A stretch of DNA of 63,903 bases, the filler included. It is 6 parts of 6 records of this genome, joined end to end, with 100 filler letters (N's around TTAATTAATTAA, not from the genome) between each part and the next. Parts side by side here need not be neighbours in the genome. Positions count along the whole stretch, not along the records: positions 1 to 11,959 come from DRR723986_6395; 5 more parts are not named here. The stretch is one strand, 5' to 3'. Position 1 is the first letter of the stretch. The number at the start of each line of letters is the position of its first letter. Both the position numbers and the translations under genes were made by a program. This document shows positions 1-63,737 of the stretch, piece after piece. The notes under the pieces are model-generated. The model had not been told where the DNA came from, did not search any database, and saw only the letters and a list, made by a program, of their open reading frames with translations.

Positions 1-30
1 GGTCGCAGGTTCGAATCCTGCCGTGGGTGC
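1..30 (+). tRNA. 3' part of tRNA-Arg(CCT) (attL; 5' part lies outside the contig)
   Basis: T-arm GCAGG-TTCGAAT-CCTGC followed by the acceptor 3' strand. Identity is inferred from the attR copy, which shows TTCCTAA. Confidence 0.75.
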
Positions 31-149
31 CTTTCAAAAACCTAGCGAATCGTTGGTTAAAACGATTACCTGGCCCATCGCCAGAGCGCACTTTTTCGAA
101 CCAGCAAAATGACAGACTGTCATTTTGCGAAGCGATTTGGAGCGCAATC

Positions 150-1385
150 ATGGCAAAGCGTCGGGGAATTCCTGGCTATCTGAAGCACTCAAGTGGCCAA
201 GCCAGAGTCTTGATCAACGGGAGGTCTTACTACCTAGGGAAGTATGGCAGCAAGGCCAGCAGGCAGCGGTACGACGCTCTCATTGCTGAGTGGTTAACAT
301 CCGGTCGAAGCCAAACGTTCGGCTTGGACGCTGGCAATCTAACTCTCGCCGACGTGATGGTCGGCTATCTCAAGCACTGCAAAGTTCACTACTCCGCGGG
401 GGTTGAATACAAGCACGTCAAGAGTGTTCTGCGCGTGGTCAACCAGCTGTACGCGACCGTCCTCGCGTGTGAATTTGGCCCCCAGCAATTCAAGGCAGTG
501 CGTCAGAAACTCATCGACGACCCTAAATGCCAATGGGCAAAACGTGACCTTAGGAAGACGGCGAAGCCGCTGTCACGGACCTACATTAACAGTCAGATGA
601 AACGTCTCACACGGATGTTTCGATGGTCGGCGGCGAATGGTGATGTTCCGCCTGATCTGTATCAGACCCTTAGGTTGATTCCGTCGCTGCAGCGTGGGCG
701 GACGGAGGCTCGAGAGGCCAAGAGCGTTGGGCCAGTCTCGATAGAAACGGTCCGAGCTACCCTTCCTTTTCTTCCGTCGGTGGTCGCGGACATGGTTCGG
801 CTTCACTACCTGGTGGCGGCCCGCCCGGCGGAGATCTGTGGCCTTACTCCAGAGATGATCGACCGAACTGGTGAGGTCTGGATCGCGAGGCTAAAGAATC
901 ACAAGACCGCGCGTCACGGGCGTGTTCGTGAGCTGCACTTCGGGCCAGCCGCTCAACAGATCCTCCGCCCTTATCTGGCAAGAGAACCAAACGCCAAGTT
1001 ATTCTCCCCCGTTGAATCTGAGGCGAATAGGCGTGCAGAGTTGTCTAAGGGACGGAAGACACCAGCGAACTGCGGGAATCGTCCAGGGTACTCAGAACGG
1101 GCTCGAGCTGGCCGTCCCGCAAAACGCCCGCCTGCCACGGAGTACAATCCTGGTAGCTACGCACGGGCTGTGCTGAGAGCAGCCAAGAAAGCAGGAGTCG
1201 AGCACTGGACACCCAACCAACTAAGACATGCTGGCGGGACACTGATCCGGTCACAGTACGGCTTAGAGCACTCACAAGCGATACTCGGGCATTCGAAGGC
1301 CGACATGACCGAACACTATGCAAAGGTCGATCAAGAGCGTGCGACTGAGGTAGCTAAGAACGATAGCGAACGACGAATAGACTGA
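150..1385 (+). CDS. int: Tyrosine recombinase/integrase
   Basis: Catalytic motifs AARPAE, NQLRH, LGHS and TEHYA; N-terminal arm-binding region (SSGQARV..YYLGKYGS); directly after the tRNA 3' end. ATG150 is preferred over the ORF start at 27. Confidence 0.95.
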   Translation: MAKRRGIPGYLKHSSGQARVLINGRSYYLGKYGSKASRQRYDALIAEWLTSGRSQTFGLDAGNLTLADVMVGYLKHCKVHYSAGVEYKHVKSVLRVVNQLYATVLACEFGPQQFKAVRQKLIDDPKCQWAKRDLRKTAKPLSRTYINSQMKRLTRMFRWSAANGDVPPDLYQTLRLIPSLQRGRTEAREAKSVGPVSIETVRATLPFLPSVVADMVRLHYLVAARPAEICGLTPEMIDRTGEVWIARLKNHKTARHGRVRELHFGPAAQQILRPYLAREPNAKLFSPVESEANRRAELSKGRKTPANCGNRPGYSERARAGRPAKRPPATEYNPGSYARAVLRAAKKAGVEHWTPNQLRHAGGTLIRSQYGLEHSQAILGHSKADMTEHYAKVDQERATEVAKNDSERRID

Positions 1386-1491
1386 TTAAATGTCGCCAGG
1401 GGCTTGATCACCCCGTGCTAGCCAGCCCGCGTTGTCCCGTAGCGACGCGGGTTTGGCTGACAGCGACATTCAAATCTACGGGAAAGAACAA

Positions 1492-2403
1492 ATGGAAGTG
1501 GTGATCGAGTCAACTAAGTTGATATCCGATGTCCAGCAGAGCAAACAGGTTGCGTGCTTACTGGAGGGCTACATTGAAATCATCGGAAACTACCTCGAAA
1601 TCGATGGAGAAGAGGATAACCGCAAGGAGCTTTTCCAGGAGTTCAATAAGAATTCTTCGGTGTTGTTCGGGCTACTGGGCGTGATTGCTAGGCGGACTTC
1701 ATACCTGTGGAACTTGAGAACAGGAGGCTTTGGCGAAGAGATTAAGGCTGCGGCCGGCCGACTTCCACCTGGGAAGCCAGAGTTCTTGCCGAGCGCTTTT
1801 CACTACCTTGTTCGGCAGTGCGTCGTGCTTCTGGAAGAATGTGAGAGTGCAACGCATGCACGAATCGACGGCGCAGATGACGAGCTCAGATTATTGGCAG
1901 AGCAAAAGGATATCGCACTTCAAGCTGAGTATTGGAACATCTTGAAGAACTCCGAGTGGCGAGAATTCGAATCCTGTGTGAAGCCAATGAGCCAAGTTAT
2001 TGAAGCAGTTAGCGCCAGCCTATGCAGCCCTCGAGAGACAATCGACAGAATTGAGGCTGAGGCTGCGAGGCTACCCGAAGACGAGAGTGAAGGGCCTGTT
2101 GCTCCTGGTAGCTGGAGAGGAAGTGATGGCAAAGTCCACTCCGGGATGAGGCCGATAGCTTGGAACCTTGCTGAATATCTTTGGAAAGCACGACGCAATT
2201 CGGCCACTATCGATGAGCTTGCTGCTCCATTGCTCGGCGACGCGGAGGAGTTTCTAGAAGAAAGCCAACTGAAGAACGCCCAGAGGACAGCAAACCAGTT
2301 TTTCAGAAGCTCCGGCCTGCCCATCCATATCGGCGTATCAACCACAAGCAACCCAACTCAGGCAACGCTAAAAAAGTTGGCGAGGTTTCGAAAAGAAACC
2401 TAA
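1492..2403 (+). CDS. Hypothetical protein with a C-terminal winged-helix-like region (possible regulator)
   Basis: Long ORF; the C-terminus (WNLAEYLWKARRNSATIDELA..LKNAQRTANQFF) resembles a wHTH. Start uncertain. Confidence 0.5.
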   Translation: MEVVIESTKLISDVQQSKQVACLLEGYIEIIGNYLEIDGEEDNRKELFQEFNKNSSVLFGLLGVIARRTSYLWNLRTGGFGEEIKAAAGRLPPGKPEFLPSAFHYLVRQCVVLLEECESATHARIDGADDELRLLAEQKDIALQAEYWNILKNSEWREFESCVKPMSQVIEAVSASLCSPRETIDRIEAEAARLPEDESEGPVAPGSWRGSDGKVHSGMRPIAWNLAEYLWKARRNSATIDELAAPLLGDAEEFLEESQLKNAQRTANQFFRSSGLPIHIGVSTTSNPTQATLKKLARFRKET

Positions 2404-2499
2404 AAGAAACCTAGACGAAACCTCCTGCTTGCAAGAATCCTTCGCAGTTAATGATTTCACGCCGCTTAGAAGGCACTCACTCGAACTCGGAGATTTGAC

Positions 2500-2751
2500 A
2501 TGCGAAGGAAGTTCATTCCAGTAGCTTCGGCAATTGAACAAGAGGCTGGATTACGCCCCTCACCGGCGACTCGCTGGCGATGGACAACCAAGGGAAGCGG
2601 TGGAGTCGTTCTTAAGACTTGGATGCTCGGCGGGAGACGAGTCACAACTCGTGAGGCTGTCCGTGAGTTCATCGAGCAACGAACGCGCGTCGCAACACCA
2701 AAACAAGCGAGGGACAACACACAGAAGGCACTAGCCGCAGAGCTGGCCTAA
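2500..2751 (+). CDS. DUF1580-like excisionase/HTH protein
   Basis: 83 aa with PSPATRWRWTTKG..LKTWMLGGRRVTTREAVREFI; GGAG RBS upstream. Confidence 0.8.
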   Translation: MRRKFIPVASAIEQEAGLRPSPATRWRWTTKGSGGVVLKTWMLGGRRVTTREAVREFIEQRTRVATPKQARDNTQKALAAELA

Positions 2752-2776
2752 GGAAGCAAAAAGGTGCCGAACCTCG

Positions 2777-3214
2777 ATGTGCGTCGAGGCTCGGCGATGG
2801 AAGATTGGGCAACCTTCAATCAGGATTCTACAAATGCACGAAGCGAGGGGCAAGCCGGAAGGCGATCGCCACACACCTGAGCAGTACAAGATTATCTCGG
2901 GGCGAATTTACAACCGGCGAAAGCAGATTCTTGGGGGGCAGGTGCCTAAAGGGGTGGATCAAGTTGATCCACCCATCGATTCGACCGCTGCCGAGGTGGC
3001 ATCAGAGCTTGGAATATCCCCTGGCACAGTCAAGCGTAATGGGCAGCGTGCCGAGGTACACGATGCGTTGCTTGAACAAGGCGACGTCGAAGCCGTTCTC
3101 GCGACTGCTAGGCGTCGTGCGGAGCTTAACTCGGCCCTCTTGCAGCTTGCCACGGTCGATGAGCGCCCTGCGGTTCTCCGGGCAATTCGTAGGTACAGCA
3201 AGGAGGCAATCTAA
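2777..3214 (+). CDS. HTH protein resembling the C-terminal part of phage ParB-like proteins (possibly truncated)
   Basis: TPEQ..GRIYNRRK and the HTH STAAEVASELGISPGTVKR; stop overlaps the next ATG (TAATG). Confidence 0.5.
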   Translation: MCVEARRWKIGQPSIRILQMHEARGKPEGDRHTPEQYKIISGRIYNRRKQILGGQVPKGVDQVDPPIDSTAAEVASELGISPGTVKRNGQRAEVHDALLEQGDVEAVLATARRRAELNSALLQLATVDERPAVLRAIRRYSKEAI

Positions 3215-3999
3215 TGGCCCGTATACGCACGATCAAACCTGAGTTCTGTACATCAGAGCAAATCGTCGAGTGCTCGGCGAGGGCTCGACTACTGTTCGTC
3301 ACCATGTGGTGCTTCTGCGACGATGCCGGTCGCCACCCAGCCAGCATCAAGCGACTCAAAATGGAGTGCTTTCCCGCAGACTCGCTCTCCGATGAGGACA
3401 TGAAAGCTCTAGTGGCGGAACTCTGCGACAACGACTTGCTTTCCGAATACGAACACGATGGGCAGCGATTCTGGCAGGTTACAGGTTGGCGAAAGCACCA
3501 GAAAATCGACCGCCCTACGTACAAACACGGCCCTTTCGAAGCAGACGGCAAGACCCCGAGGGCCCCCGAAATTCGTCGAACACTCGACGAGGCATCGACG
3601 AGCAATCAGCGAGCACTCGACGAGGCCTCACCCCCGGAAGGGAATGGAAGGGAGTCTAAGGGAATGGAGTCGAGTGGCATCGACGAAGAGTCGCCGAAGC
3701 CAACCAAGTCTAAACCGTCGAACGTACAGAAATCCCCTCCGTCTGTGGACCATGTTCGCCAGTACATGGCAGCCCAGAAATACCCAGACGATGCCGAAGC
3801 TTTCGTCGATCACTACACAGCCAATGGTTGGGTGCAGGGGCGTGGCAAACCAATCAAGGACTGGAAAGCCGCTGTACGCAACTGGCAACGAAACGACTTC
3901 CACCGGAAGCAAGCGAACGATGAGGCTGCACTACCACGCGCAGCCGACATCCAGAAAGAACCGCCCCGTGTTAAACCGAAAATGGAGCTTGCTCGATGA
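3214..3999 (+). CDS. Phage-type replication initiator (replisome organiser)
   Basis: N-terminus MARIRTIKPEF..ARLLF..WCFCDDAGR; C-terminus FVDHYTANGW..IKDWKAAVRNW; internal DNA repeats; followed by DnaB. Confidence 0.85.
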   Translation: MARIRTIKPEFCTSEQIVECSARARLLFVTMWCFCDDAGRHPASIKRLKMECFPADSLSDEDMKALVAELCDNDLLSEYEHDGQRFWQVTGWRKHQKIDRPTYKHGPFEADGKTPRAPEIRRTLDEASTSNQRALDEASPPEGNGRESKGMESSGIDEESPKPTKSKPSNVQKSPPSVDHVRQYMAAQKYPDDAEAFVDHYTANGWVQGRGKPIKDWKAAVRNWQRNDFHRKQANDEAALPRAADIQKEPPRVKPKMELAR

Positions 4000-5315
4000 C
4001 GGCTGAGAAAGACTACATCCAGCACACCAAGACTTGCGAAGAAGCTCTCATCGCTTGTGCATTGCTTGACCCGCAGCGCGCAGTTACCGAGGTACTCAGC
4101 ATCGTCATGCCAGAGGACTTTCGCGATGAAGACTTCGGGAACGTCTATCGAACGATCAGCGAATTGCACCAAGCAGGAATTCGCGCTGACAGCGACTCTG
4201 TGATCACGCAGCTTGCCAAGAAGGGTATCACGGCTGAGATCACCCCCGAGAAGCTCGGGCAAATTGTACAGCGACACACTGTGTCGAGTTCGCACACGAT
4301 TGACAATGCCGCGTACTACGCTGCCGAGGTTGCCCGGCTTGCGAGTCAACGTCGAGACATGGAGGTTGCTAAAAGTTTTCTATCACAGGAATTCCGGCTA
4401 GACCGCGATCGAACTAAGGAGCTGGAACGATTCGAGGCGGCGACAAAGGCTGAGCGACTAGCCGGCAGCGGCGACAGCGTGAAGATCTCCAAAGCCTTTT
4501 GTGATACAGCTGCGAGACACGCGTCCAGACCAAAGGATGAGGGGCCCGGTATTGCGACTGGCTTCCCCGACCTAGATTCAGCGATTGGCGGCGGACTGCA
4601 TAAAAGCACTTTGGTCTACTTAGGTGCTCGACTCGGGATAGGAAAGACAGCTCTGGCCCTCGCGATCGCTGCGTCAGTCACATCACGTGGGAAGAAAGTC
4701 TTGTTTTCGAGCTTGGAGATGACTGCGAATGAGCTTGCTGAACGCTTGGCGAGCGATCAGCTTGGAATCCCGTTTCGCCGTTTTAGCAACGGCGAACTTG
4801 AAACCGAAGACCTTGATGCAATAACGGCCTGTGCAAGCGAACTCGAAGACTGGGAACTTGAAATCGCCGACAGATCGAACCAGTCGATCGATTACATTCG
4901 TGCTCGGGCGTCCGTCATGGGCAACGTCGATTTGATTGTCATTGACAACCTGCAAATTCTTGCGCCAGTTGATGCTCGTGTTGAAAGGCGACACCAACTC
5001 ACCGCACTCGCGCAGAAGTGCAAGAGCCTCGCCAAGGATCTCGACTGTTGCGTGCTTCTCGTTGGACAACTGAATGCGGACGCGGAAGGAAGAGCCCCAA
5101 CGAAGCGAGATCTCTCCGAAGGTAAGCAAGTCCTTGAACCCGTACACACGGCCATGCTGCTGCATCGAGAGCGTGAAGGCGATGGCAGACTCTCGCGTCG
5201 CTTGGAGGTTCACGTCTCCAAGGCTCGAAGTGCAGAGGAGTGTGTTGTTGAACTGGATTTCGACGGCGCGTACCAACGAATCAGCGACCGCTCAGTCTGC
5301 TCAGAGCTTGGGTAG
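3996..5315 (+). CDS. dnaB: DnaB-like replicative helicase
   Basis: TGFPDLD, Walker A GARLGIGKT, SLEM, Walker B VIDNLQ, QLN and KAR motifs; ATGA overlap with the initiator. Confidence 0.92.
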   Translation: MTAEKDYIQHTKTCEEALIACALLDPQRAVTEVLSIVMPEDFRDEDFGNVYRTISELHQAGIRADSDSVITQLAKKGITAEITPEKLGQIVQRHTVSSSHTIDNAAYYAAEVARLASQRRDMEVAKSFLSQEFRLDRDRTKELERFEAATKAERLAGSGDSVKISKAFCDTAARHASRPKDEGPGIATGFPDLDSAIGGGLHKSTLVYLGARLGIGKTALALAIAASVTSRGKKVLFSSLEMTANELAERLASDQLGIPFRRFSNGELETEDLDAITACASELEDWELEIADRSNQSIDYIRARASVMGNVDLIVIDNLQILAPVDARVERRHQLTALAQKCKSLAKDLDCCVLLVGQLNADAEGRAPTKRDLSEGKQVLEPVHTAMLLHREREGDGRLSRRLEVHVSKARSAEECVVELDFDGAYQRISDRSVCSELG

Positions 5316-5324
5316 TTGGCATAG

Positions 5325-5999
5325 CTAGCCGACTCCTTGAAAGTACTCAAGAGTCGGGACTGCCTCGCAAAGGTCCTGAAACTCTTGCGAGCTCCGCCGA
5401 AGTGTTGACCTAAGCGACCTGAGTTTTCTGAGCGAATGCAAGGGCCGCAAGCCGCCCTTGTCGACCTTTACGCTGATGAGCCAAAGCATTTCCAGATATG
5501 CCAGCGAGGTGATAGGTGCAAGCGACTCCACCGCTATTTTGCGTCCCCTAACGGCTGATATGCCAAACTCCCTAAGGTTAGGAGTGCTCGTCAGAAAGCC
5601 GAGGTTCACTGGAGCTGCGACGTTCTCGATGAAAAGATACTCGAGCCCACTCAACGAAGCGATTGCGTTGAGGTCGGCTACTGACGGGGAACTTCCAAGA
5701 AACAGTGCCCTCAGATTCTTTGCGTTGCCAATTTCGCCTAGAGATTTCAGCGAGCTCCATTTGACGCTCAACGCTTCGAGTCGTGATGCATTTGCAGCCG
5801 CATCGAACAGCTCTTGCGATACCTTTGTCGAGAACATGATCGTGGTCGCGGGCACGCTAGGCAGAGCGTGAATCCACTTGTCGACTAACCGACGCTGGGC
5901 CGAAGCAGCAAGGCCCGTTTGCGTACACGCTATGTTGAGCACTTCTGATCCGTCGTAGTCTTCAACATTTTCTAATGCCGCTGGTATCTCACCTGACAT
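5325..5999 (-). CDS. Leucine-rich-repeat-like protein (cargo)
   Basis: Repeated LxxLxL units (LEALSV, LRALFL, LEYLFI, LREFGI, LEMLWL, LRSLRS). Start uncertain (5999 or up to 6050). Confidence 0.65.
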   Translation of the reverse strand: MSGEIPAALENVEDYDGSEVLNIACTQTGLAASAQRRLVDKWIHALPSVPATTIMFSTKVSQELFDAAANASRLEALSVKWSSLKSLGEIGNAKNLRALFLGSSPSVADLNAIASLSGLEYLFIENVAAPVNLGFLTSTPNLREFGISAVRGRKIAVESLAPITSLAYLEMLWLISVKVDKGGLRPLHSLRKLRSLRSTLRRSSQEFQDLCEAVPTLEYFQGVG

Positions 6000-6349
6000 C
6001 TGTCGAGCAGGCCAGTATCCGTAACGAAGTCTATCGGTGTCCGAATGCAACGTAAGCTCCCCAAGGTGGTAACGAGCTACAAAGCAGTAAAGCCTAATAG
6101 CTGCAACTTGTGATTACAAACAATGCGACGTTAGAGCCAGCGGGTCCTCATCAGCAGAACAACGAGATGCCCTCAACGGGAACAGTCCCTAATTACCACA
6201 ATCTTTCTTTATTTACTAGCTTACCTAAGCTTACACCTGCTTGATCTTCTGCATTTATATTCGCACTTCGGATTACTCGTTTGAACTTTCTCGAATCGAC
6301 GCGATCATGGTGTTCATAGCTGACACAATCGTGAACCAGGAGCCGTGCG

Positions 6350-6574
6350 ATGCAAAACATCGATAACCCAGACCGACTGATGAAAGTTGGGCCTACGTAC
6401 GAGCTTGTGACAGGCCACCCCGAACCCTCGAAGCAGACGCGATCAGCATGGGTCAGGAAAGGTCGGGGCGGGAGGCGGCTTTTGGTTACACGGTTGTGCG
6501 ATGGACTTTACACGACTCCGCGGCGGATGGCGGAGTTTTTGCAACTTGACCTTGTTCTGGAAGGCAGAAGATGA
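6350..6574 (+). CDS. Second, divergent DUF1580-like HTH protein
   Basis: PSKQTRSAWVRKGRGG..YTTPRRMAEFL aligns with the 2500-2751 protein; AGGAG RBS. Confidence 0.6.
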   Translation: MQNIDNPDRLMKVGPTYELVTGHPEPSKQTRSAWVRKGRGGRRLLVTRLCDGLYTTPRRMAEFLQLDLVLEGRR

Positions 6575-7008
6575 ACCTGATCAACAAACTAGCGGCGAAA
6601 GTGGCAAAACAGAAGGCTTCAGCAGAGGAGAGGCTTGCTGGTCTTCGAGCTGACTTCATCCAGGCGGCTTACTATGAGTCGTCGGGCGAAGACGCTTCAG
6701 ATCTCTCGCGAGCTGTGGAGGATGCGATTTCGGAAGGAGCGGTGTCTTCAGCGGAAATCGCCGAAATTCAACAAGCTGCATCGAAGCGGTACGAGCTGGA
6801 ATGTCGGGTGGCGAAAGAGCGGGAACTGCAGAAAGCTCGCCAAGAAACCGAACAGGATTTCGTTTCAATGACTAAGCGACACCGTGAGGAGCGCGAAGCA
6901 CTCTCCACCAAGCGGCACTTGGCTAAGACCGCCTACGCGAGCTGCCAGGAGTCGAAACAGCGCCTCCAGGATCTTGCGGGCGAGTTTCCAGAGCTTTTCG
7001 CGTTCTAG
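6571..7008 (+). CDS. Hypothetical coiled-coil protein
   Basis: 145 aa, rich in E/K/R/A and helical; ATGA coupling to the upstream gene. Confidence 0.7.
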   Translation: MNLINKLAAKVAKQKASAEERLAGLRADFIQAAYYESSGEDASDLSRAVEDAISEGAVSSAEIAEIQQAASKRYELECRVAKERELQKARQETEQDFVSMTKRHREEREALSTKRHLAKTAYASCQESKQRLQDLAGEFPELFAF

Positions 7009-7053
7009 GTCCGCAACATTCACGTTCCCTCCTGATCACCGAAAGTTAGACCG

Positions 7054-7359
7054 ATGAGTTCTCCCCAATTCGCGAGCTTGTTCCGGCGTGCCGGCAGCGC
7101 AGCCCAAGAACCAAAGCAAACCGACACCAACCAGCCTTCCACTCAATTCGCGAGCTTGTTTCGACGGGCCGGCAGCGCAGCTGGAAAGCCAAAGGCCCCG
7201 ATGCAGAACAGCACCAACAAGCTGTCGGGCATCGGTTCATCTGGGGCTGACACTGCAAGCGATGTTAACTTCAACAAGGTGCCAGATTCTCTTCAGTTTT
7301 CGAGCCTGTTTCGACAGGCAACGAACCCTGGCCGCCAGCTGGATTTCACCGCACGCTGA
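7054..7359 (+). CDS. Small protein with three QF(A/S)SLFR(R/Q)A repeats
   Basis: Repeats 1 and 2 differ only at synonymous third positions over 13 codons. Confidence 0.7.
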   Translation: MSSPQFASLFRRAGSAAQEPKQTDTNQPSTQFASLFRRAGSAAGKPKAPMQNSTNKLSGIGSSGADTASDVNFNKVPDSLQFSSLFRQATNPGRQLDFTAR

Positions 7360-7370
7360 GCAAAGCTTGC

Positions 7371-7424
7371 CGGAGCGGCTCGGGTCTGTATCGCCTTCCA
7401 TCGGGCTCGGGCTAGCTCCGTTTT
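7371..7424 (+). terminator. G-U-rich 18-bp hairpin followed by TTTT, upstream of the tape-measure gene
   Basis: 7371-7388 pairs with 7402-7420 (one bulged A, five G-U pairs), then T4. Confidence 0.5.
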
Positions 7425-7457
7425 GACACAAAACTTCAGAACACACGGTTGAGACAA

Positions 7458-9416
7458 ATGGCTAAACGAAAATTCGGCGAAGCTCAAGTCGAGGTGTCGA
7501 TTCGTGATCGTGTCGGCCAAGGACTCAAGGCGATAGAGCATCGCTTGAAGGCCTTTGCCATGCGGATGCGTGCGATCGGAGGAAGCATTGCTGGAGTCGG
7601 AACGATTGCTACCGGCGCATTTGGCGGAGTTGGCGCGGCTCTGCTCGGGGCGTCGAGCAAATTTGGAACTTTCGGCGATCAGATCCAGAAGACTTCGGCT
7701 CGGCTGAACACCAGTGCCAAGTTCTTGACCGGTCTCAAGTTTGCCGCTGAGCAGTCTGGTTCTAGCCTTGAGTCAGTCGCTAATGCGATGTTCAGAGCGA
7801 ATCGCCGGATTGCGAACGCTACGAAGGGCACAGGTCCCGCCGTGCGTGCGTTGAACGACCTCGGCCTCTCAGCAGACCAACTAAACAACCTGAGCACTGA
7901 GGACCGCTTCTTGGCGATCAGCGACGCTCTGGCGAATATGCAGAACGAGACGCTGGCCGCCCAATATGGGTTCGAGATCTTCGGTGACAACTTCCGCGAC
8001 ATCAAGCCTTTGATCGATGAAGGCTCGGACGGGATCCGCCAACTCACAAGCGAAGCTGAATCACTGGGGCTAACCCTCGGTGATAACGACGCCAACGGGG
8101 CGGCTGCATACGCGGACGCTATGAACCGAATGAAGCAATCCGTGACCGGAGCCGTTGTTCAGATAGGTGCAGCCCTTGCCCCCGCGATCAAATCAGCGGC
8201 GGCTATCTTCACTCGAGTCACCACTAGAGTGAGTCTTTTCATTCGGAAGAATCGGGGGCTTGTAGTCGCTGTCGGAGCGGCGACAGCGGTAGCGTTCACT
8301 TTCGGTGCCGCCTTAGCGGCAGCAGGTGTAACCATCGCGGGTGTAGGAGTGGCGGTTGGCGTGTTCGGGTCGGTCGTCAGTGCGGTTGGCGCAGCCCTCG
8401 CAGTCGTTGCAAAACCTTTGGCGATCGTTGCCGCTGCAGTTGGAGGGCTCGGCGGTGCAGCCCTATATGCTTCGGGCGGCTTCGCGAAACTAGGCAAAAT
8501 GTTCCTGTCTATCCGTGACACCGCAGTTCACGCGTGGAGTGGAATCACAGCAGCTCTGGCCAGCGGCGACTTGGCGATTGCCGGTGAAATTGGTTTTACG
8601 GCACTCAAGATTGCCTGGTTGAAAACGACCAATGACATGAAACAGGTGTACTTCGATGCTATCAACTACATCAAAGACATCTTCCTGGACCTGGGAGAAG
8701 GCACGATCCATTTGGGAGCGAACATCTACTTTGGCGTCGCCAAGTATTTTGACAAGCTCGCGAACTCTTTACTGACTGGATTCGACACCGCATTCACTTA
8801 CATTCGCGGCGGCATCGATCGAATTCAGACTTCGATATCGAAAGCGATAATTTCAGCGGGGCGATTCTTCGGTATGTTCTCGAAGGATGAAGCCGCTCAA
8901 GTTCAGTCCTCACTCGACGCCAACCTGGAGCGAAGAGCAGAGGAACGGGAGAAGGGACTTGGGCGGCGAATTGGCTCACTCGGACAAGAACTCTACCTTC
9001 GCGACCAGCAGAGGAAGAGCCAGGCTTCTGATTTCACTTCGGATACGATTAACCTGTTCAATGACCAGAAGCGACAACGGGCAGGGCCCGACCAGGAAGG
9101 CGTCGTGGCGGCCCAGGAGGAACTGGCAAGGCTCAACGCCAAACTAGCTTCTACGGTGCAGAAAGCTCGCCAGGATGCTGTCTCGGCTGCCAAGCTTCCC
9201 GGAGCGGGTGATCAGGGATTCGATCTTGCGGCGGTGTTTGGTGCTCAAGCTCAATCGCAAATAAAAGCTCGGGGGACAAGCAGTGCTGCTGCCGTCGCCG
9301 CCGGTGCGCTCGATATTGGTCGAAGCGATGACAAGATGCGAAAGCTAGTTGTGAACACCGACAAAAACAACAGGCTGATGCTTCGATTGATCAATAAGAG
9401 AGGTGGTTTTCGGTAA
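7458..9416 (+). CDS. Phage tail tape-measure-like protein (652 aa)
   Basis: A/G-rich helical protein; TMP-like core (GLKFAAEQSG, ALNDLGLSA, EIFG, PLIDEGSDGIRQLTSEAESLG); central hydrophobic stretch. Confidence 0.8.
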   Translation: MAKRKFGEAQVEVSIRDRVGQGLKAIEHRLKAFAMRMRAIGGSIAGVGTIATGAFGGVGAALLGASSKFGTFGDQIQKTSARLNTSAKFLTGLKFAAEQSGSSLESVANAMFRANRRIANATKGTGPAVRALNDLGLSADQLNNLSTEDRFLAISDALANMQNETLAAQYGFEIFGDNFRDIKPLIDEGSDGIRQLTSEAESLGLTLGDNDANGAAAYADAMNRMKQSVTGAVVQIGAALAPAIKSAAAIFTRVTTRVSLFIRKNRGLVVAVGAATAVAFTFGAALAAAGVTIAGVGVAVGVFGSVVSAVGAALAVVAKPLAIVAAAVGGLGGAALYASGGFAKLGKMFLSIRDTAVHAWSGITAALASGDLAIAGEIGFTALKIAWLKTTNDMKQVYFDAINYIKDIFLDLGEGTIHLGANIYFGVAKYFDKLANSLLTGFDTAFTYIRGGIDRIQTSISKAIISAGRFFGMFSKDEAAQVQSSLDANLERRAEEREKGLGRRIGSLGQELYLRDQQRKSQASDFTSDTINLFNDQKRQRAGPDQEGVVAAQEELARLNAKLASTVQKARQDAVSAAKLPGAGDQGFDLAAVFGAQAQSQIKARGTSSAAAVAAGALDIGRSDDKMRKLVVNTDKNNRLMLRLINKRGGFR

Positions 9417-9569
9417 AGATCAAGGCTCTTGCGGCCCGCGAATCTCTGTTTTCCACAAGAGGCCTCGTTCACAGCTCCAGCTTTTCCTGCAGTCCTTGCG
9501 AGGCTCACTGGCTCTAGTTCGGAAACTACTTAAAATGGAACGGCCCCACCTTCCAAAAGTAGTAGGCCC

Positions 9570-9890
9570 ATGCCTGGTCCAGAACCGTCCACCTATCAAG
9601 AAATCGTTGAAAGCCTAAGCGGCTCGCTGGACCTTGCTTTGTCGGGTTATTCGACGATTGAGGAACTGGACGCCTCTAACCGCATGAGCCATCTGAACGG
9701 TGACATCGACGACGAAGACTTCAATAGTGTTCGCGAAGTGGAGAAGCAGCTTGCCGATGTTTGGCTGAAGGCGGCAAAGGCGCTTCTGTTGGTCGTTCAC
9801 ATGGAACGATTGTTCGAAGGCGACTCAAGAGTCGCAGAGCTCGAAAAGCGAGTCGGGCTACTTCGAAGCCAACTGAAGAACTTGCATTAG
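9570..9890 (+). CDS. Hypothetical protein
   Basis: 106-aa ORF with ATG start filling the intergenic space. Confidence 0.5.
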   Translation: MPGPEPSTYQEIVESLSGSLDLALSGYSTIEELDASNRMSHLNGDIDDEDFNSVREVEKQLADVWLKAAKALLLVVHMERLFEGDSRVAELEKRVGLLRSQLKNLH

Positions 9891-9953
9891 CTCTATTCCC
9901 CCAGAAGTGCACGACGGCCAGTTCTAAAGCCGGGCGCTCCAGAATGGGTTTTG

Positions 9954-10199
9954 CTACTTTTCCTCGGCTCCTTTAGGACCTTGGGTTGCAACGCAGTGTC
10001 CATCTGCATATTCGAGTTCTTCGATGTACTCATCTAGTTCAGAGCGGCGATACTTCGGTCTCGCTGACAAGTAATGCACCACGCTTTTGATCTTTCCAGC
10101 GGCTTTGAGGTTGGATAGCTCGCTTGGCGAGATCCCCAAATACTCCGCCGCGTCTTCACGGCTCATTACTGCTGGCCAACGTTCAGACATTTCCATCAC
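9954..10199 (-). CDS. Excisionase-like HTH (HTH_17 type)
   Basis: MSREDAAEYLGIS..PKYRRSELDEYIE pattern. Confidence 0.75.
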   Translation of the reverse strand: MMEMSERWPAVMSREDAAEYLGISPSELSNLKAAGKIKSVVHYLSARPKYRRSELDEYIEELEYADGHCVATQGPKGAEEK

Positions 10200-10261
10200 C
10201 TCGCTCTGTTGGTTTGATACAATTCGCCAATTACGAAATCTACCACAAGCAAGGAAGCCTC

Positions 10262-10504
10262 ATGTCCCCTGCCGCCAAAGAACCAGACCAGTCCACATAT
10301 TCCGGTAGATTCGCCGCGAGGCTGAGGATGCTCAGAGAGAAGGCGGGGCTGAGCGTGGATGAGGTGGTGGCCAGTGCGGGAGTAGCCGCCAGAACGTACT
10401 ATGGCTGGGAAAATGGTTCGCGACAGCCTCCTTTTGACATCCTGCCAAAGCTAGCTGCCGCCCTAAAAGTTAAAACCCCGCGCACGTTAATGCCTACGGA
10501 GTAA
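10262..10504 (+). CDS. XRE-family HTH repressor
   Basis: RLRMLREKAGLS..YYGWENGSRQP..LAAALKV; ATG10262 follows AGGAAG. Confidence 0.88.
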   Translation: MSPAAKEPDQSTYSGRFAARLRMLREKAGLSVDEVVASAGVAARTYYGWENGSRQPPFDILPKLAAALKVKTPRTLMPTE

Positions 10505-10505
10505 T

Positions 10506-10557
10506 TTGCTCAAATTGAGCGAAGGGATATTGCTCAATTTGAGCGAGGCGTTACAAT
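10506..10557 (+). promoter_or_regulatory. Twin palindromic operators overlapping a sigma70-like promoter
   Basis: GCTCAAATTGAGC (10508-10520) and GCTCAATTTGAGC (10532-10544); -35 TTGCTC at 10530, -10 TACAAT at 10552, 16-bp spacer. Confidence 0.7.
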
Positions 10558-10592
10558 CGCTACCGTCACGTCGAAACAACCCAAATCATCTA

Positions 10593-10648
10593 AGCCCTGT
10601 TCGCTTCGCTGCGACGTGACAATTACAGCGAGGTGCCCAGGGTTTTTT
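10593..10648 (+). terminator. Leader terminator/attenuator hairpin
   Basis: AGCCCTG..TTCGCTG pairs with CAGCGAG..CAGGGTT and runs into the T-tract 10643-10648. Confidence 0.6.
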
Positions 10649-10732
10649 CGTGCCCTGATTCACCTCAGCGCATAAAAATGGCCCCGCAAGTGCGGCAACA
10701 CTTCGGAGCCCGGTTCTCAATTGGAGTGAACG

Positions 10733-11725
10733 ATGTCCATTGTTACAGCTGAACAGCCAGTCGTCAATGAAGTTGAAGACCAAATCTTCCGACGGCGGGC
10801 CCGTTGGGCACTTCGCAGAATGCTTGTGCTGATTGATGAGCTTGCTGTGAGTACGCGTTGGCTGTCGGTTAACGAAATCACGCAGGCCGTGAACGAGCGG
10901 CTCGGCGTCTCCTACATACCTAGAACATATGAACGAGACTTGTTCCTGCTTGAATCAGAGGAGCTTGTCGAGTCGCGTTCTGAGTGTCCATTTGGCCGCT
11001 TCTCGCGGACTCAAGTGCGAACTTGGCGACTACTCAAAGAGCGTTCCGAGGGGCTTCAGGAAGCCGCAATCAAGCTCGATGAGTCACTGGCCCCTGTAGA
11101 AGCCCAAGAGCCACTGTACGCGATTCTGATTCGCGACGAGAACGGCTGGCAAGTGTCGGATCACGATTCGATAAGCTTCCGAGACTTGCAAGGGCTAGTT
11201 GCTCAACTGGATGGCGAGTGGGCGATTGTTCCCTGCGACAGGATTGGAGAGTTTCTGCCTGATGAAGAACCCACGAGGGCTGCCTACGATGAAGCCGTGT
11301 TGTGGAAAGACAAGGTGGAAAGCATCGTCGATAGCTACGAATATGCCGAGATGGCGGTTCCGCGTACTCTTCGCGACGAACTCAATCGAGCTAGTGAGTC
11401 GAGCAGCAGGCTGCACGCCGAGTGGCGTTACCACAACCAGGAAGTTCCCGCGTACTTCTTAGAGTACAGGCCAAGCGAGAGTGAGCAACGGACGTTTCTT
11501 CCGCTGGAGCTCACAGATATGCGGCATGCGTTCTCACTGCTGGCCACAGCAGTCCATAGACGAGGGCACGTCCCTGTCATCTACAGGCTACCGGTCTCTG
11601 CCAAAGCGATCCGGCAGGGTCAAGTCATCTCTTTTGGCGAATGGCGGGGGGTGGCATACGACCACCTCATCAAGCGGGAACAAGAGCGTGAGGAGTACTG
11701 CCCCAGGTGCAAAGAACTCGCATAG
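10733..11725 (+). CDS. Hypothetical protein with an N-terminal winged HTH
   Basis: 330 aa; WLSVNEITQAVNERLGVSYIPRTYERDLFLL resembles a wHTH; GGAG RBS. Confidence 0.6.
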   Translation: MSIVTAEQPVVNEVEDQIFRRRARWALRRMLVLIDELAVSTRWLSVNEITQAVNERLGVSYIPRTYERDLFLLESEELVESRSECPFGRFSRTQVRTWRLLKERSEGLQEAAIKLDESLAPVEAQEPLYAILIRDENGWQVSDHDSISFRDLQGLVAQLDGEWAIVPCDRIGEFLPDEEPTRAAYDEAVLWKDKVESIVDSYEYAEMAVPRTLRDELNRASESSSRLHAEWRYHNQEVPAYFLEYRPSESEQRTFLPLELTDMRHAFSLLATAVHRRGHVPVIYRLPVSAKAIRQGQVISFGEWRGVAYDHLIKREQEREEYCPRCKELA

Positions 11726-11930
11726 CCACACGGCGATCACCCCCGGAAATTTGCACCGGTGCAACTTTGTTCTCAGTAAACTGACAAACTGTCATCTCAT
11801 ACTTCTCGGACTGTCACCACCCTGTTCAAAAAAGCGAAAAAACATGCAATACTCTGAAATGATATTGGGACGCCCAAAAGGGTGGTTTTTACAGGGGAAA
11901 AGTGCGTTTTCACCGGTGCTTTGGGGCATT

Positions 11931-11959
11931 TTCCTAAAGCTAAGGTCGCAGGTTCGAAT
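11931..11959 (+). repeat. attR: duplicated tRNA 3' half starting at the anticodon loop
   Basis: TTCCTAAAGCTAAGGTCGCAGGTTCGAAT contains the CCT anticodon loop and the start of the T-arm. No tRNA 5' half lies upstream. Confidence 0.8.
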
Positions 11960-12059
11960 NNNNNNNNNNNNNNNNNNNNNNNNNNNNNNNNNNNNNNNNN
12001 NNNTTAATTAATTAANNNNNNNNNNNNNNNNNNNNNNNNNNNNNNNNNNNNNNNNNNNN
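11960..12059. other. Artificial contig linker (also at 28500-28599, 37932-38031, 44051-44150 and 58631-58730)
   Basis: N-run + TTAATTAATTAA (stops in all six frames) + N-run, the same five times. Confidence 0.98.
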
Positions 12060-12132: not shown

Positions 12133-12350
12133 GGAGTACGCGATACGGACTTCGAAGTTCAAGGCAGGGAAATTCAGACCCGGGGCTCGAGCGCTTGCAG
12201 CTCTCTGAACCGATGTGAACCCAGCCTTCCGAACAGCATACCGGCCCGTGGCGTCATGGAAGGCCACATTCAAAGGCCTGACACACGTCCGATCGGAGAC
12301 CCCGCAGAAAATCGAAGATAACGCTTGCCAAACAGGGGGCATCCACACAC
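12133..12350 (+). mobile_element. Right non-coding end of an IS110/IS1111-type element
   Basis: Ends in CTTGCCAAACAGGGGGCATCCACAC exactly where WYL homology stops; internal AGGCC..ACAC motif resembles IS1111 3' regions. Confidence 0.5.
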
Positions 12351-12671
12351 GATCCAGCTTTGCTCGGAGCTCAGCAGCCCCTGGTCAACCGCACGCAGCT
12401 GGGCAAAGTACTCCTCAGCGTCCGGGTTGAGATATTTGGGCTTAAAGTGCTTACCGCGCAGATACGTGCGCAGGCTCTTGTCATACACAAGGTTTCGCTT
12501 GGCCTGCTCAATGTAGGCGTTCAAGTCCAGCGAAGCTTGCTGTGTCGAAACCCCAAACGCGTCCATCAAGTCTCCTCGGTTTATCCGCCCCTGCCAAAAC
12601 AGGCGAAACTCGATGAACTCATATCGACGTTCTACACCCCAGTTCAGCTGCTTTCCCTTCTTGCGGGTCAC
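12351..12671 (-). pseudogene. N-terminal wHTH part of a WYL-domain (CapW/BrxR-like) regulator, interrupted by an IS
   Basis: WGVERRYEFIEFRLFWQGRINRGDLMDAFGVSTQQASLDL..YDKS; the frame runs into IS sequence after ..QSWI. Confidence 0.8.
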
Positions 12672-12777
12672 CCGGCGCCCTCACTTATATGTCACATTAC
12701 TACATGCGTCTAATTGTTTTACCCACTAGACCATTCGGCCGACGGAGCCTCAGGGGTAAGCGCGACGTCGAGGCCCT

Positions 12778-13080
12778 ATGCGGCGAGGCTTGACGGCTGA
12801 GGAGCTCCCGATAACGAATGATGACTTCATCGATCCCACCCACGCTGAGTTGATCCGTCTCTGCGAACAGATGCTCGATCGCGACCGTCCGGTCATTGCA
12901 GCAGCTCTGAAGGGCGTGATCACCGGTGACGTCTTTCGAGGCGTTGATGGATCCTGGTGGACGAAGGGGGAGGACCCAGATAGCCGCGAGTTGAGCAGGC
13001 TGCTGCCGAAGATCGAGAAAGAGATGGACGATCTCGAGAGGTGGTGGTCAAACTTCCGCAAGGTACGACAGGAAGGCTAA
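12778..13080 (+). CDS. Hypothetical protein
   Basis: 100-aa ORF converging on the nucleotidyltransferase gene. Confidence 0.4.
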   Translation: MRRGLTAEELPITNDDFIDPTHAELIRLCEQMLDRDRPVIAAALKGVITGDVFRGVDGSWWTKGEDPDSRELSRLLPKIEKEMDDLERWWSNFRKVRQEG

Positions 13081-13617
13081 TGCGGATTTTCGCGTTGCAT
13101 CATCTATCTCCGTTGCGGCCAAACGATCCGCAACTGTTTTGATGTCCAATGGCCGGCATCGATGCCGCTCCTGGATATAGGCGATATCCTTCTCATCGAG
13201 GCGGGCCAGCTTCGAGACGACGAGATCCTCGGGGGAGGGGGCGATCGCGGTCACTGTGGCACCATCCAGCTGAACAGCGAGGTGGATCACGCGATCCTGC
13301 CATCCCGGCGGCAGAGTGGCAGTGTTGGCGTCTACACCGTCGATGTAGAAGCCATGGGCTTCGTGAAACATCGATCCCCAACCGAAAAGAGCGTTGATCT
13401 CTTCCGAAGCCTCATCGCCAGGGTGGTCCTGCTCCCATCCTAGCCAGTTGATCGGGTAAGCATCAATCTCACCGGAGGTCCGCATCAATACGGGAGCATC
13501 AGGCCATTCGAGAAGGGCAGACTGGCTGCCGATGATCACGACAGTGTCAGTGCGAAAATGAGTCGAGAGCGCGCGAACAGCGCGCTCAAGATCTTCGATC
13601 GTGCGGACTTCACTCAC
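13048..13617 (-). CDS. DUF6036-like nucleotidyltransferase
   Basis: IIGSQS, SGEIDAY, FHEAHGFYIDGV, LPPGW and DLVVSKLARLDEKD; GTG start overlaps the upstream stop. Confidence 0.75.
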   Translation of the reverse strand: MSEVRTIEDLERAVRALSTHFRTDTVVIIGSQSALLEWPDAPVLMRTSGEIDAYPINWLGWEQDHPGDEASEEINALFGWGSMFHEAHGFYIDGVDANTATLPPGWQDRVIHLAVQLDGATVTAIAPSPEDLVVSKLARLDEKDIAYIQERHRCRPLDIKTVADRLAATEIDDATRKSALAFLSYLAEV

Positions 13618-13987
13618 CGTAGACCGGTGTCCGCATCTTCGGGATCTTTCCCTTCTTCGCGATTTTCCATACTCTCTTCCGGATCGTTGGATCCTTGAGG
13701 TCAGCAACGGAGAAGAAGGGAGAGCTGACGCGTAGGCGGGTCATTTGGGACGACCGGGACGTGATCATCTTACGGACCTCTTCCGGCGTGCGATCCAGGA
13801 TCTCCAGCCACTCCTGGCTGCTGCTCAAGGAGCGAGGGCCTGTCGACAGCGTACGCTTGACAGTCTCGATCAGCTCGGGCTGCTGCGAGATACGACGAGC
13901 CACCAGGCGATGCATCAAAAGCTTCGCCCGGTCGTTCACCATCTCAGTGTTGACCTTCTGGTAGGTCACAGCAGACCCTTTCAGCAC
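13610..13987 (-). CDS. Small partner protein of the nucleotidyltransferase (possible antitoxin)
   Basis: LLMHRLVARRI..EWLEIL..RLRVSSPF; overlaps the downstream gene by 8 nt. Confidence 0.6.
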   Translation of the reverse strand: MLKGSAVTYQKVNTEMVNDRAKLLMHRLVARRISQQPELIETVKRTLSTGPRSLSSSQEWLEILDRTPEEVRKMITSRSSQMTRLRVSSPFFSVADLKDPTIRKRVWKIAKKGKIPKMRTPVYGE

Positions 13988-63657: not shown

Positions 63658-63737
63658 GGCGAGTTGGCGGAGTGGTCGAACGCAACGGTTTGCAAAACCG
63701 TATTCCATCACCGGTTCGAATCCGGTACTCGCCTCCA
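63658..63737 (+). tRNA. tRNA-Cys(GCA), atypical (enlarged D-loop and variable region)
   Basis: Acceptor GGCGAGT/ACTCGCC, T73, CCA; anticodon arm ACGGT-TTGCAAA-ACCGT; T-arm ACCGG-TTCGAAT-CCGGT. Confidence 0.85.

Follow-up and report, generated by a model that had tools for sequence, protein, structure and literature searches.

Why would a mobile element of this small size carry the gene for a tape measure protein (TMP), the protein that sets the length of a phage tail, and no other gene of the virion? The question is raised by the first contig (DRR723986_6395) of the window, by which we mean the whole stretch of 63,903 nucleotides that was analysed. The window consists of several contigs joined end to end, with a spacer of N's around TTAATTAA at 11,960–12,059 after the first of them. 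Its positions 1–11,959 hold a complete element encoding integration, regulation and replication functions together with one virion gene, that of an intact TMP, which is the last of four co-oriented genes at 6350–9416. We think it somewhat probable that these four genes form a morphogenesis-hijacking unit, and that the element is an 11.9-kb, tRNA-integrating planctomycete satellite, similar to the phage-inducible chromosomal islands (PICIs), which builds chimeric tails.

The 652-aa reading frame (counted from its ATG) matches 15 PHROG families, the best being TMP with E = 8e-34, as a first-pass annotation of this DNA had proposed; Pfam gave no match. In the database 128 homologues were found, and the best eight are 39–51% identical and 649–667 aa long. 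The N-terminal profile derived from TMPs of tail operons matches the window protein with E = 1e-9, and G606 in its C-terminal motif is invariant in 22 aligned homologues. We inspected 160 metagenome and viral TMP loci (the best 80 of 403 plus the best 80 of 335, duplicates included). A tube and/or tip gene lies near the TMP gene in 142 of them, and the remaining 18 are for the most part short contigs. The gene order in the phages of the family is terminase, portal, protease/scaffold, capsid, head-tail, tube, chaperone, TMP and tip. Judged by these comparisons, the window protein is a full-length TMP of a planctomycete siphophage family. Cultured phages gave partial TMP matches only, none of the 112 records covering 80%, and the context of the closest TMP clade was not found in viral contigs. 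The closest TMP with a context (L001/L234, contig C79 of genome G001) is accompanied by two tip genes, two open reading frames, the terminase large subunit and, by eye, TIR-like genes; no tube or chaperone gene lies upstream of it. In a prophage on contig C377 of the same genome (L256) the order is rearranged to terminase, portal, TMP and tip, with the head-tail, tube and chaperone genes downstream.

The first and last 16 nt of the contig are identical and resemble the T-arm in the 3′ half of a tRNA. A relaxed ARAGORN run gave a weak tRNA call only, and the identity of the tRNA is uncertain. Because the same tRNA-like repeat is present at both contig ends, the whole integrative element is in view, with a unit of 11,943 bp that is either circular or broken at attL and attR. 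The host is probably a planctomycete, since the closest TMPs come from two genomes of the Planctomycetaceae and Planctomycetota. A search of sequencing runs for the element returned one DNA run with a share of 0.07 and no RNA run among the matches listed; the contigs of this DNA run covered 7 of 30 bins of the element with no joint seen and are uninformative. With profiles of all terminase-to-tip genes of the helper family and with PHROG, we found no virion gene other than TMP in the element. The profile scan detected no chaperone, tube or tail-tip gene, and no terminase small subunit or capsid gene was found among the reading frames scanned with Pfam, PHROG and the helper-family profiles. Such a small complete element with TMP as its single virion gene supports the setting of satellite and helper phage that the first-pass annotation had implied.

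The arrangement recurs. We searched 301 genomes of the family of G001, obtained TMP matches in 87 and fetched 80 TMP regions; most matches in frames over 1000 aa were left out. By rule the regions comprise 52 virion operons, 9 tip-only or cut loci, 8 orphan TMPs with an integrase and 11 others. On reading, four of these 11 (L227, L229, L252 and L261, the last with an integrase recognized by eye) are also integrase/replicase elements. L002 is a further element, in which the integrase was not identified. Thus, there are 13 TMP elements besides that of the window, 12 from the 80 regions plus L002, and they combine an integrase, a helix-turn-helix (HTH) protein of the AlpA/DUF1580 type and a primase or DnaB in varying mixes. 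Nine are linked to a tRNA. In seven of the nine a 25–55-bp attachment (att) repeat of the tRNA end encloses the TMP gene, with the copies 9.7–16.4 kb apart; one of the remaining two has a 15-bp repeat only and the other has none. The only sister element with a chaperone-position gene beside the TMP is L254, where it is of the ordinary type, and a small terminase is present in L229 and, by eye, in L268. Two Phage_capsid genes (Pfam, E = 6e-32 and 6e-56) accompany the orphan TMP of L227 (L227:10543-13793), which in this respect is similar to the capsid-forming PICIs (cf-PICIs). The element in G002 (L002:3090-4420) adjoins an apparently interrupted gene, which we take to be of the comM/yifB type and which is a possible non-tRNA insertion site.

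The satellite TMPs do not go back to one ancestor. We calculated a tree of 41 proteins including 10 satellite TMPs (two truncated TMPs and three that belong to a different TMP family were left out). A single origin of the 10 is rejected (p-AU = 1.75e-32), and a FastTree of 88 proteins agrees that there is none. Thus, by their phylogeny, the satellite TMPs are the result of several captures. In an N-terminal tree the window TMP groups (SH-aLRT 99) with the phages L003, L004, L005 and L008, plus L083; the first four all belong to a subtype with a separate scaffold-position gene. Both terminal motifs of the operon TMPs are kept in 7 of 15 satellite TMPs, which are 433–854 aa long. Two conserved termini with a variable middle are as expected of a working ruler and suggest that these proteins serve as such.

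How does the element compare with known satellites? Gram-negative PICIs of the AlpA type have a tRNA-targeting tyrosine integrase, an AlpA-like HTH protein, a replication module, a size of 10–16 kb and no complete virion module. The window element shares the layout of PICIs apart from a packaging gene: a tyrosine integrase, an att repeat at a tRNA 3′ end, a length between 10 and 20 kb, an AlpA-like regulator with a replication module, and no complete virion or lysis module. It differs from PICIs and cf-PICIs in that it has no capsid or terminase gene, in the DUF1580 protein at the AlpA position and in its planctomycete-like host. To our knowledge, control of tail assembly by a satellite has been shown experimentally only for the PICI-like elements (PLEs) of Vibrio and has been suggested for the EPIPs.

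In Vibrio cholerae the TMP of the PLE is built into tails that derive from the helper; these chimeric tails have been documented by electron microscopy, blot and mass spectrometry, and deletion of the PLE TMP costs 96–99.9% of transfer (PMC12987554). How and why the satellite TMP is preferred is stated there as unknown. Like the PLEs the window element has its own TMP and no tail tube. However, PLEs have genes for a chaperone and a baseplate hub as well and exploit a lytic phage with a contractile tail (PMC12987554), whereas the window element has a siphophage-type TMP alone on an unrelated backbone and is not a PLE. The EPIPs of Mycolicibacterium aichiense carry a TMP and have tails longer than those of the helper; they share with the window element the size of about 11 kb, the presence of TMP and the absence of tail proteins, but possess a serine integrase, a terminase small subunit, a head-tail adaptor and a stopper (PMC12822802). 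The window element instead has a tyrosine integrase, the other three genes were not found, and it is not an EPIP. Putative tmp genes are also noted for cf-PICIs (PMC12987554, legend of Extended Data Fig. 10). TMP-bearing satellites are therefore already published, namely PLEs, cf-PICIs and EPIPs. Our literature search, made largely among open-access papers, retrieved nothing on planctomycete satellites with a TMP. From its gene content, the best reading of the window element is that it would work like a tail-modifying satellite of the PLE/EPIP type on a PICI-like backbone.

We suggest that tail hijacking might proceed as follows. Upon induction of a helper from the siphophage family of the TMP the element would excise and replicate. 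The satellite TMP would then be threaded into tails made of the tube, chaperone and tip proteins of the helper, giving chimeric satellite tails; for this the element would borrow the helper's chaperone. With 0.105–0.15 nm per residue (the lower value from PLE data, the upper from the first-pass annotation) the tail would measure about 70–100 nm, and would be 4–11 nm longer than with the 581–611-aa TMPs of the nearest phages. The first gene of the unit, ORF74, would regulate the unit. ORF101, and perhaps ORF145, would act on the head, and ORF101 could redirect or block head assembly as CpmB of the staphylococcal pathogenicity islands (SaPIs) does. The other 13 elements mostly lack a chaperone, and their TMPs, acquired by repeated capture, vary in length; these elements would indicate that the strategy has evolved many times over, and would offer a natural series for the minimum that a satellite needs to re-rule the tail of its helper.

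Several points weigh against this proposal. All PLEs carry the TMP together with a chaperone (PMC12987554); no chaperone is present in our element, and therefore there is no known route for a selective incorporation of its TMP. Likewise, no terminase small subunit was found, and thus packaging is unexplained. The C-terminal profile of the operon TMPs did not match the window TMP. Decay of satellite TMPs does happen, as two are truncated (L262, 256 aa; L268, 159 aa). Of the helper family only the capsid and tail-tube proteins matched PHROG, and the labels scaffold, chaperone and tip are positional. Finally, the closest TMPs (P0001-P0009) are without known context except for L001/L234.

Could the TMP be directed against the helper instead? 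It might be a dominant-negative decoy which co-assembles with, or titrates, the helper's chaperone and tip and so poisons the tails of helper or superinfecting phages, rather than serving satellite tails. Defences that block tail assembly exist, and the absence of a chaperone and of a tip gene from the element would fit a decoy, as would the scatter of satellite TMP lengths (414–895 aa) with two truncated copies. An integrase-primase element (L341:9062-10518, G045:C9) also speaks for it. There a DUF1580 gene lies directly upstream of an ORF145 homologue, followed by a 151-codon reading frame, both ends of which faintly recall the TMP termini (C-terminal profile, E = 0.2); it is possibly a mini-TMP or a remnant. 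However, both ends are kept in 7 of the 15 satellite TMPs, which a decoy would not require, and the window TMP is close to the median length of its family (652 versus 663 aa). Moreover, the satellite itself needs tails, and PADLOC has no match for the TMP. We consider a decoy unlikely.

The three small genes upstream of the TMP gene were also confirmed. The reading frames code for 74, 145 and 101 aa. The first two overlap by 4 nt, 45 nt lie between the second and the third, and 98 nt between the third and the TMP frame, so that the co-oriented and closely spaced arrangement described in the first-pass annotation holds. The region upstream is indeed comparatively AT-rich, with 46% GC (37% in 6200–6300) versus 55% for the contig; no sigma-70 consensus was found in this spacer upstream of ORF74. 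ORF74 does not match DUF1580 (PF07618) at the Pfam gathering score. Over 40 aa it has 38% identity with the DUF1580 protein encoded elsewhere in the element, and a profile of 9 DUF1580 homologues run against 15 element proteins scores it with E = 2.4e-6, which upholds its description as DUF1580-like. We presume that ORF74 regulates the unit. The hairpin between ORF101 and the TMP gene might, on weak grounds, lower the TMP output.

According to the first-pass annotation, ORF145 and ORF101, one or both, might serve the satellite TMP as non-canonical chaperones or else inhibit the TMP of the helper, and the module would fall if the small genes were not conserved next to TMP homologues. An inhibitor of this kind would be comparable to Rta. 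Both genes are co-oriented with and directly upstream of the TMP gene, ORF101 occupies the slot of the chaperone of L254, and several sister elements have, one or two positions before the TMP gene, a gene that looks coiled-coil by eye. Rta of PLE11 was likewise without a recognizable homologue (PMC12987554). But neither small protein resembles the chaperone-position proteins of the family. Only one of nine ORF145 homologue loci has the gene beside a sure TMP, and this one (L254) also has a normal chaperone, while L363 has no TMP. The coiled-coil family A4 occurs in 33 of the 301 genomes, and TMP in none of the eight A4 regions read through. ORF101 has no homologue in any search, and its motif points to the head and not to the tail. 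We found no XXXYYYZ slippery site in 6571–7460, as the G/GT frameshift of tail-assembly chaperones would require, and two in-frame stops separate the frames in this region. The small genes are thus not conserved beside TMP homologues, nor are the four genes conserved as a unit. As they do not form a conserved module with the TMP, the idea of a chaperone or inhibitor draws solely on gene position, and we regard it as very unlikely.

Equally little speaks for the view that the TMP is a mere passenger, that is, a prophage fragment picked up by chance, or that the element is a decayed prophage. The truncated copies L262 and L268 and the tip-only remnants L212 and L257 in the same genomes are in line with it, and chance pick-up would give polyphyly too. 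Yet it is TMP alone, and not other tail genes, that recurs in 13 separate small elements, of which seven have precise att ends, and the window copy is intact, flanked by non-phage genes and without a remnant of neighbouring tail genes. That the TMP took on a new role, as a channel in the membrane or in superinfection exclusion, as suggested earlier from its hydrophobic stretches (residues 233–251 and 267–339), is hardly credible: with 107 residues in total the segment is below the median of 139 (98 reading frames of the family, nearly all from intact tail operons) and is therefore ordinary and in need of no new function, and the conserved N-terminal assembly motif is kept.

Within the hijacking unit ORF101 calls for a closer look. 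The motif QF[AS]SLFR[RQ]A occurs three times, at residues 5–13, 31–39 and 81–89, all in one frame. Between repeats 1 and 2 there are four substitutions in 39 nt, each of them silent and at a third codon position (probability by chance about 0.004); the substitutions leave one of the antisense frames unchanged as well. By this pattern ORF101 is very likely coding. As the changes are silent, it is the peptide and not the DNA that is conserved, and iterons at the DNA level are ruled out. The single-sequence model has a pLDDT of 58 and is mostly disordered. Homologues were found neither with the word index nor in the Atlas, nor by motif scans of 330 sequences or the codon pattern in viral contigs.

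A lead comes from the related phages. In one subtype of them the portal and capsid genes are separated by a distinct gene of about 380 codons, in scaffold position. The proteins that it encodes end in a short motif, such as FESLFS (L008), WASLFK (L270) and FASMFN (L369). We derived a profile from 17 non-redundant tails, leaving ORF101 out; among the 15 element proteins scored with it, ORF101 comes first (8.2 bits, a score reached by 8 of 1000 shuffles). Two things count against this likeness. It was noticed before it was tested, and further phages were then taken as a held-out set; and in the 28 non-redundant upstream frames of that set the motif scores best within the last 25 residues in 7, with 11 of 200 shuffled motifs as high. 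After dropping 7 frames that do not match the scaffold profile, 6 of 21 remain (mean of shuffled motifs 2.1; 6 of 300 as high). A profile from the 21 held-out tails again puts ORF101 first, and 76 of 1000 shuffles reach its score. The p values are thus 0.008 in the discovery set and 0.02–0.08 in the held-out set. A pattern that we drew up by hand and after the fact is present in 12 of 48 tails and in each of the three ORF101 repeats, and in 0.27% of background windows. We take the held-out tests as modest, repeatable support for a likeness to the scaffold tail, not as proof. FKSLFS, a sequence like the scaffold-position tails, is also contained in the gene upstream of the ORF145 homologue in L254.

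In phage 80-alpha the C-terminal 16 residues of the scaffold bind the capsid protein, and CpmB of SaPI1 carries the same motif and outcompetes the scaffold (PMC5644958). Tentatively, ORF101 may be a mimic of this kind: a satellite protein with the C-terminal capsid-binding motif of the helper scaffold, which competes for the major capsid protein. The two proteins differ, since CpmB as described folds into a helical dimer whose chains each bear a single motif, and ORF101 is disordered, has three copies per chain and is not related in sequence. More speculative, and in our opinion rather unlikely, is that both ends of the virion are hijacked with minimal parts, by a TMP swap without chaperone and by ORF101 as a multivalent internal tether of defined linker length, yielding small heads or aborted helper heads. 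ORF101 would then be an array of short motifs and not a folded scaffold, a detail that we hold equally loosely. If true, the triple mimic of a scaffold tail would be a new architecture for capsid redirection.

ORF145 is modelled as an all-helical protein of three helices (3–38, 43–54 and 60–138; mean pLDDT 92), in accordance with its earlier description as a coiled-coil protein. We found two homologues in the database and nine genomic ones in six genomes, with a common P-x-L-F-like motif at the C-terminus; six of the nine lie near integrase genes (profile). Long downstream context is available for three loci, L254, L363 and L341. The word index and the viral contigs gave no homologue, and Foldseek no match at E ≤ 0.001 in the viral and PDB sets. 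The best VIA hit (Z 6.4) is to generic coiled coils, without a clear match to a solved structure. Psu is the nearest named Atlas cluster (0.81, within the chance range), and Psu (PF07455) and Sid gave no match with Pfam, Foldseek or VIA. Psu and Sid of P4 are all-helical coiled-coil satellite proteins encoded in a late unit after a small regulator; similarly, ORF145 is an all-helical coiled coil in a unit after ORF74, the small presumed regulator. Possibly, though we have our doubts, ORF145 is a second head-related coiled-coil factor with a role like that of Psu, Sid or CpmB. A prediction of the TMP–ORF145 complex without alignments scored 0.00, which is no answer and is counted neither way.

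Two assignments of ORF145 were discarded. The PADLOC match to AbiEi (E = 6e-4) falls on the coiled coil, and membership in the common A4 family was not borne out (hhalign E = 0.16; the iterated profile missed ORF145). The A4 genes, of about 240 codons and coiled-coil, follow a metalloprotease-like gene, and this pair recurs in the mobile DNA of planctomycetes, both where a TMP is present and where it is not (L217:10813-12567, L221, L252, L307, L309, L311, L316, L319 and L322). By eye, the products of the genes that precede ORF145 homologues have a helical domain of some 45 residues in common at their end (L344:1263-1820, L345:1328-2158, L346:1182-1802 and L354:7921-8607).

Table 1. Genes and other features of the 11.9-kb element (positions in the window)
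Feature	Position	Strand	Evidence
Left 16-nt terminal repeat, att core (T-arm of tRNA 3′ half)	1–16	+	sequence identity of the ends
Tyrosine integrase, start probably ATG 150	27–1385	+	Pfam PF00589, E = 2e-13; 40% identical to integrase of sister L208
323-aa accessory protein, no clear match	1432–2403	+	Pfam, PHROG and PADLOC scans
DUF1580 HTH protein, AlpA/excisionase-like position	2500–2751	+	Pfam PF07618, E = 5e-20
HTH protein	2777–3214	+	Sigma70_r4_2, E = 9e-5, below cut-off
Phage-type replication initiator	3214–3999	+	phrog_1408, E = 3.5e-33
DnaB-like helicase	3996–5315	+	Pfam PF03796, E = 3e-48
Leucine-rich-repeat-like cargo gene	5325–6050	-	LRR_14, E = 2.7e-5, below cut-off
AT-richer spacer, presumed promoter region of the four-gene unit	6051–6349		GC content
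ORF74, diverged DUF1580-like HTH, presumed regulator	6350–6574	+	likeness to DUF1580
ORF145, all-helical coiled-coil protein, C-terminal P-x-L-F motif	6571–7008	+	model; homologues in small planctomycete integrative elements
ORF101, mostly disordered, three QF[AS]SLFR[RQ]A copies; candidate mimic of scaffold C-terminus	7054–7359	+	motif and tail profiles
G+C-rich hairpin followed by UUUU, weak candidate attenuator	7370–7420	+	z = -1.97; 9 of 200 shuffles as stable
Intact 652-aa tail TMP	7458–9416	+	PHROG
106-aa helical reading frame, no family	9570–9890	+	reading frame call, no Pfam match
HTH_17 (Cro/excisionase-like) protein, divergent from next gene	9954–10199	-	Pfam PF12728, E = 8e-8
XRE/CI-like repressor	10262–10504	+	Pfam HTH_31, E = 1.5e-12
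330-aa reading frame, no family	10733–11725	+	weak N-terminal PADLOC match
Right 16-nt terminal repeat	11944–11959	+	identical to left copy

The other features of the element are collected in Table 1; an Rfam scan of 1–11,959 gave no match. The leucine-rich-repeat-like gene, which separates the replication unit from the TMP unit and is read from the other strand, occupies a place typical of cargo, and a weak homologue of it (E = 9e-5) adjoins the integrase of L354. The later parts of the window look alphaproteobacterial by eye and are unrelated to the element. The next contig contains, within 12,270–13,987, what appears by eye to be the start of a HTH/WYL-type regulator, and a DUF6036 nucleotidyltransferase with an upstream partner, similar to a toxin–antitoxin pair. 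Near the end of the window, at 63,658–63,737, there is a tRNA-Cys gene.

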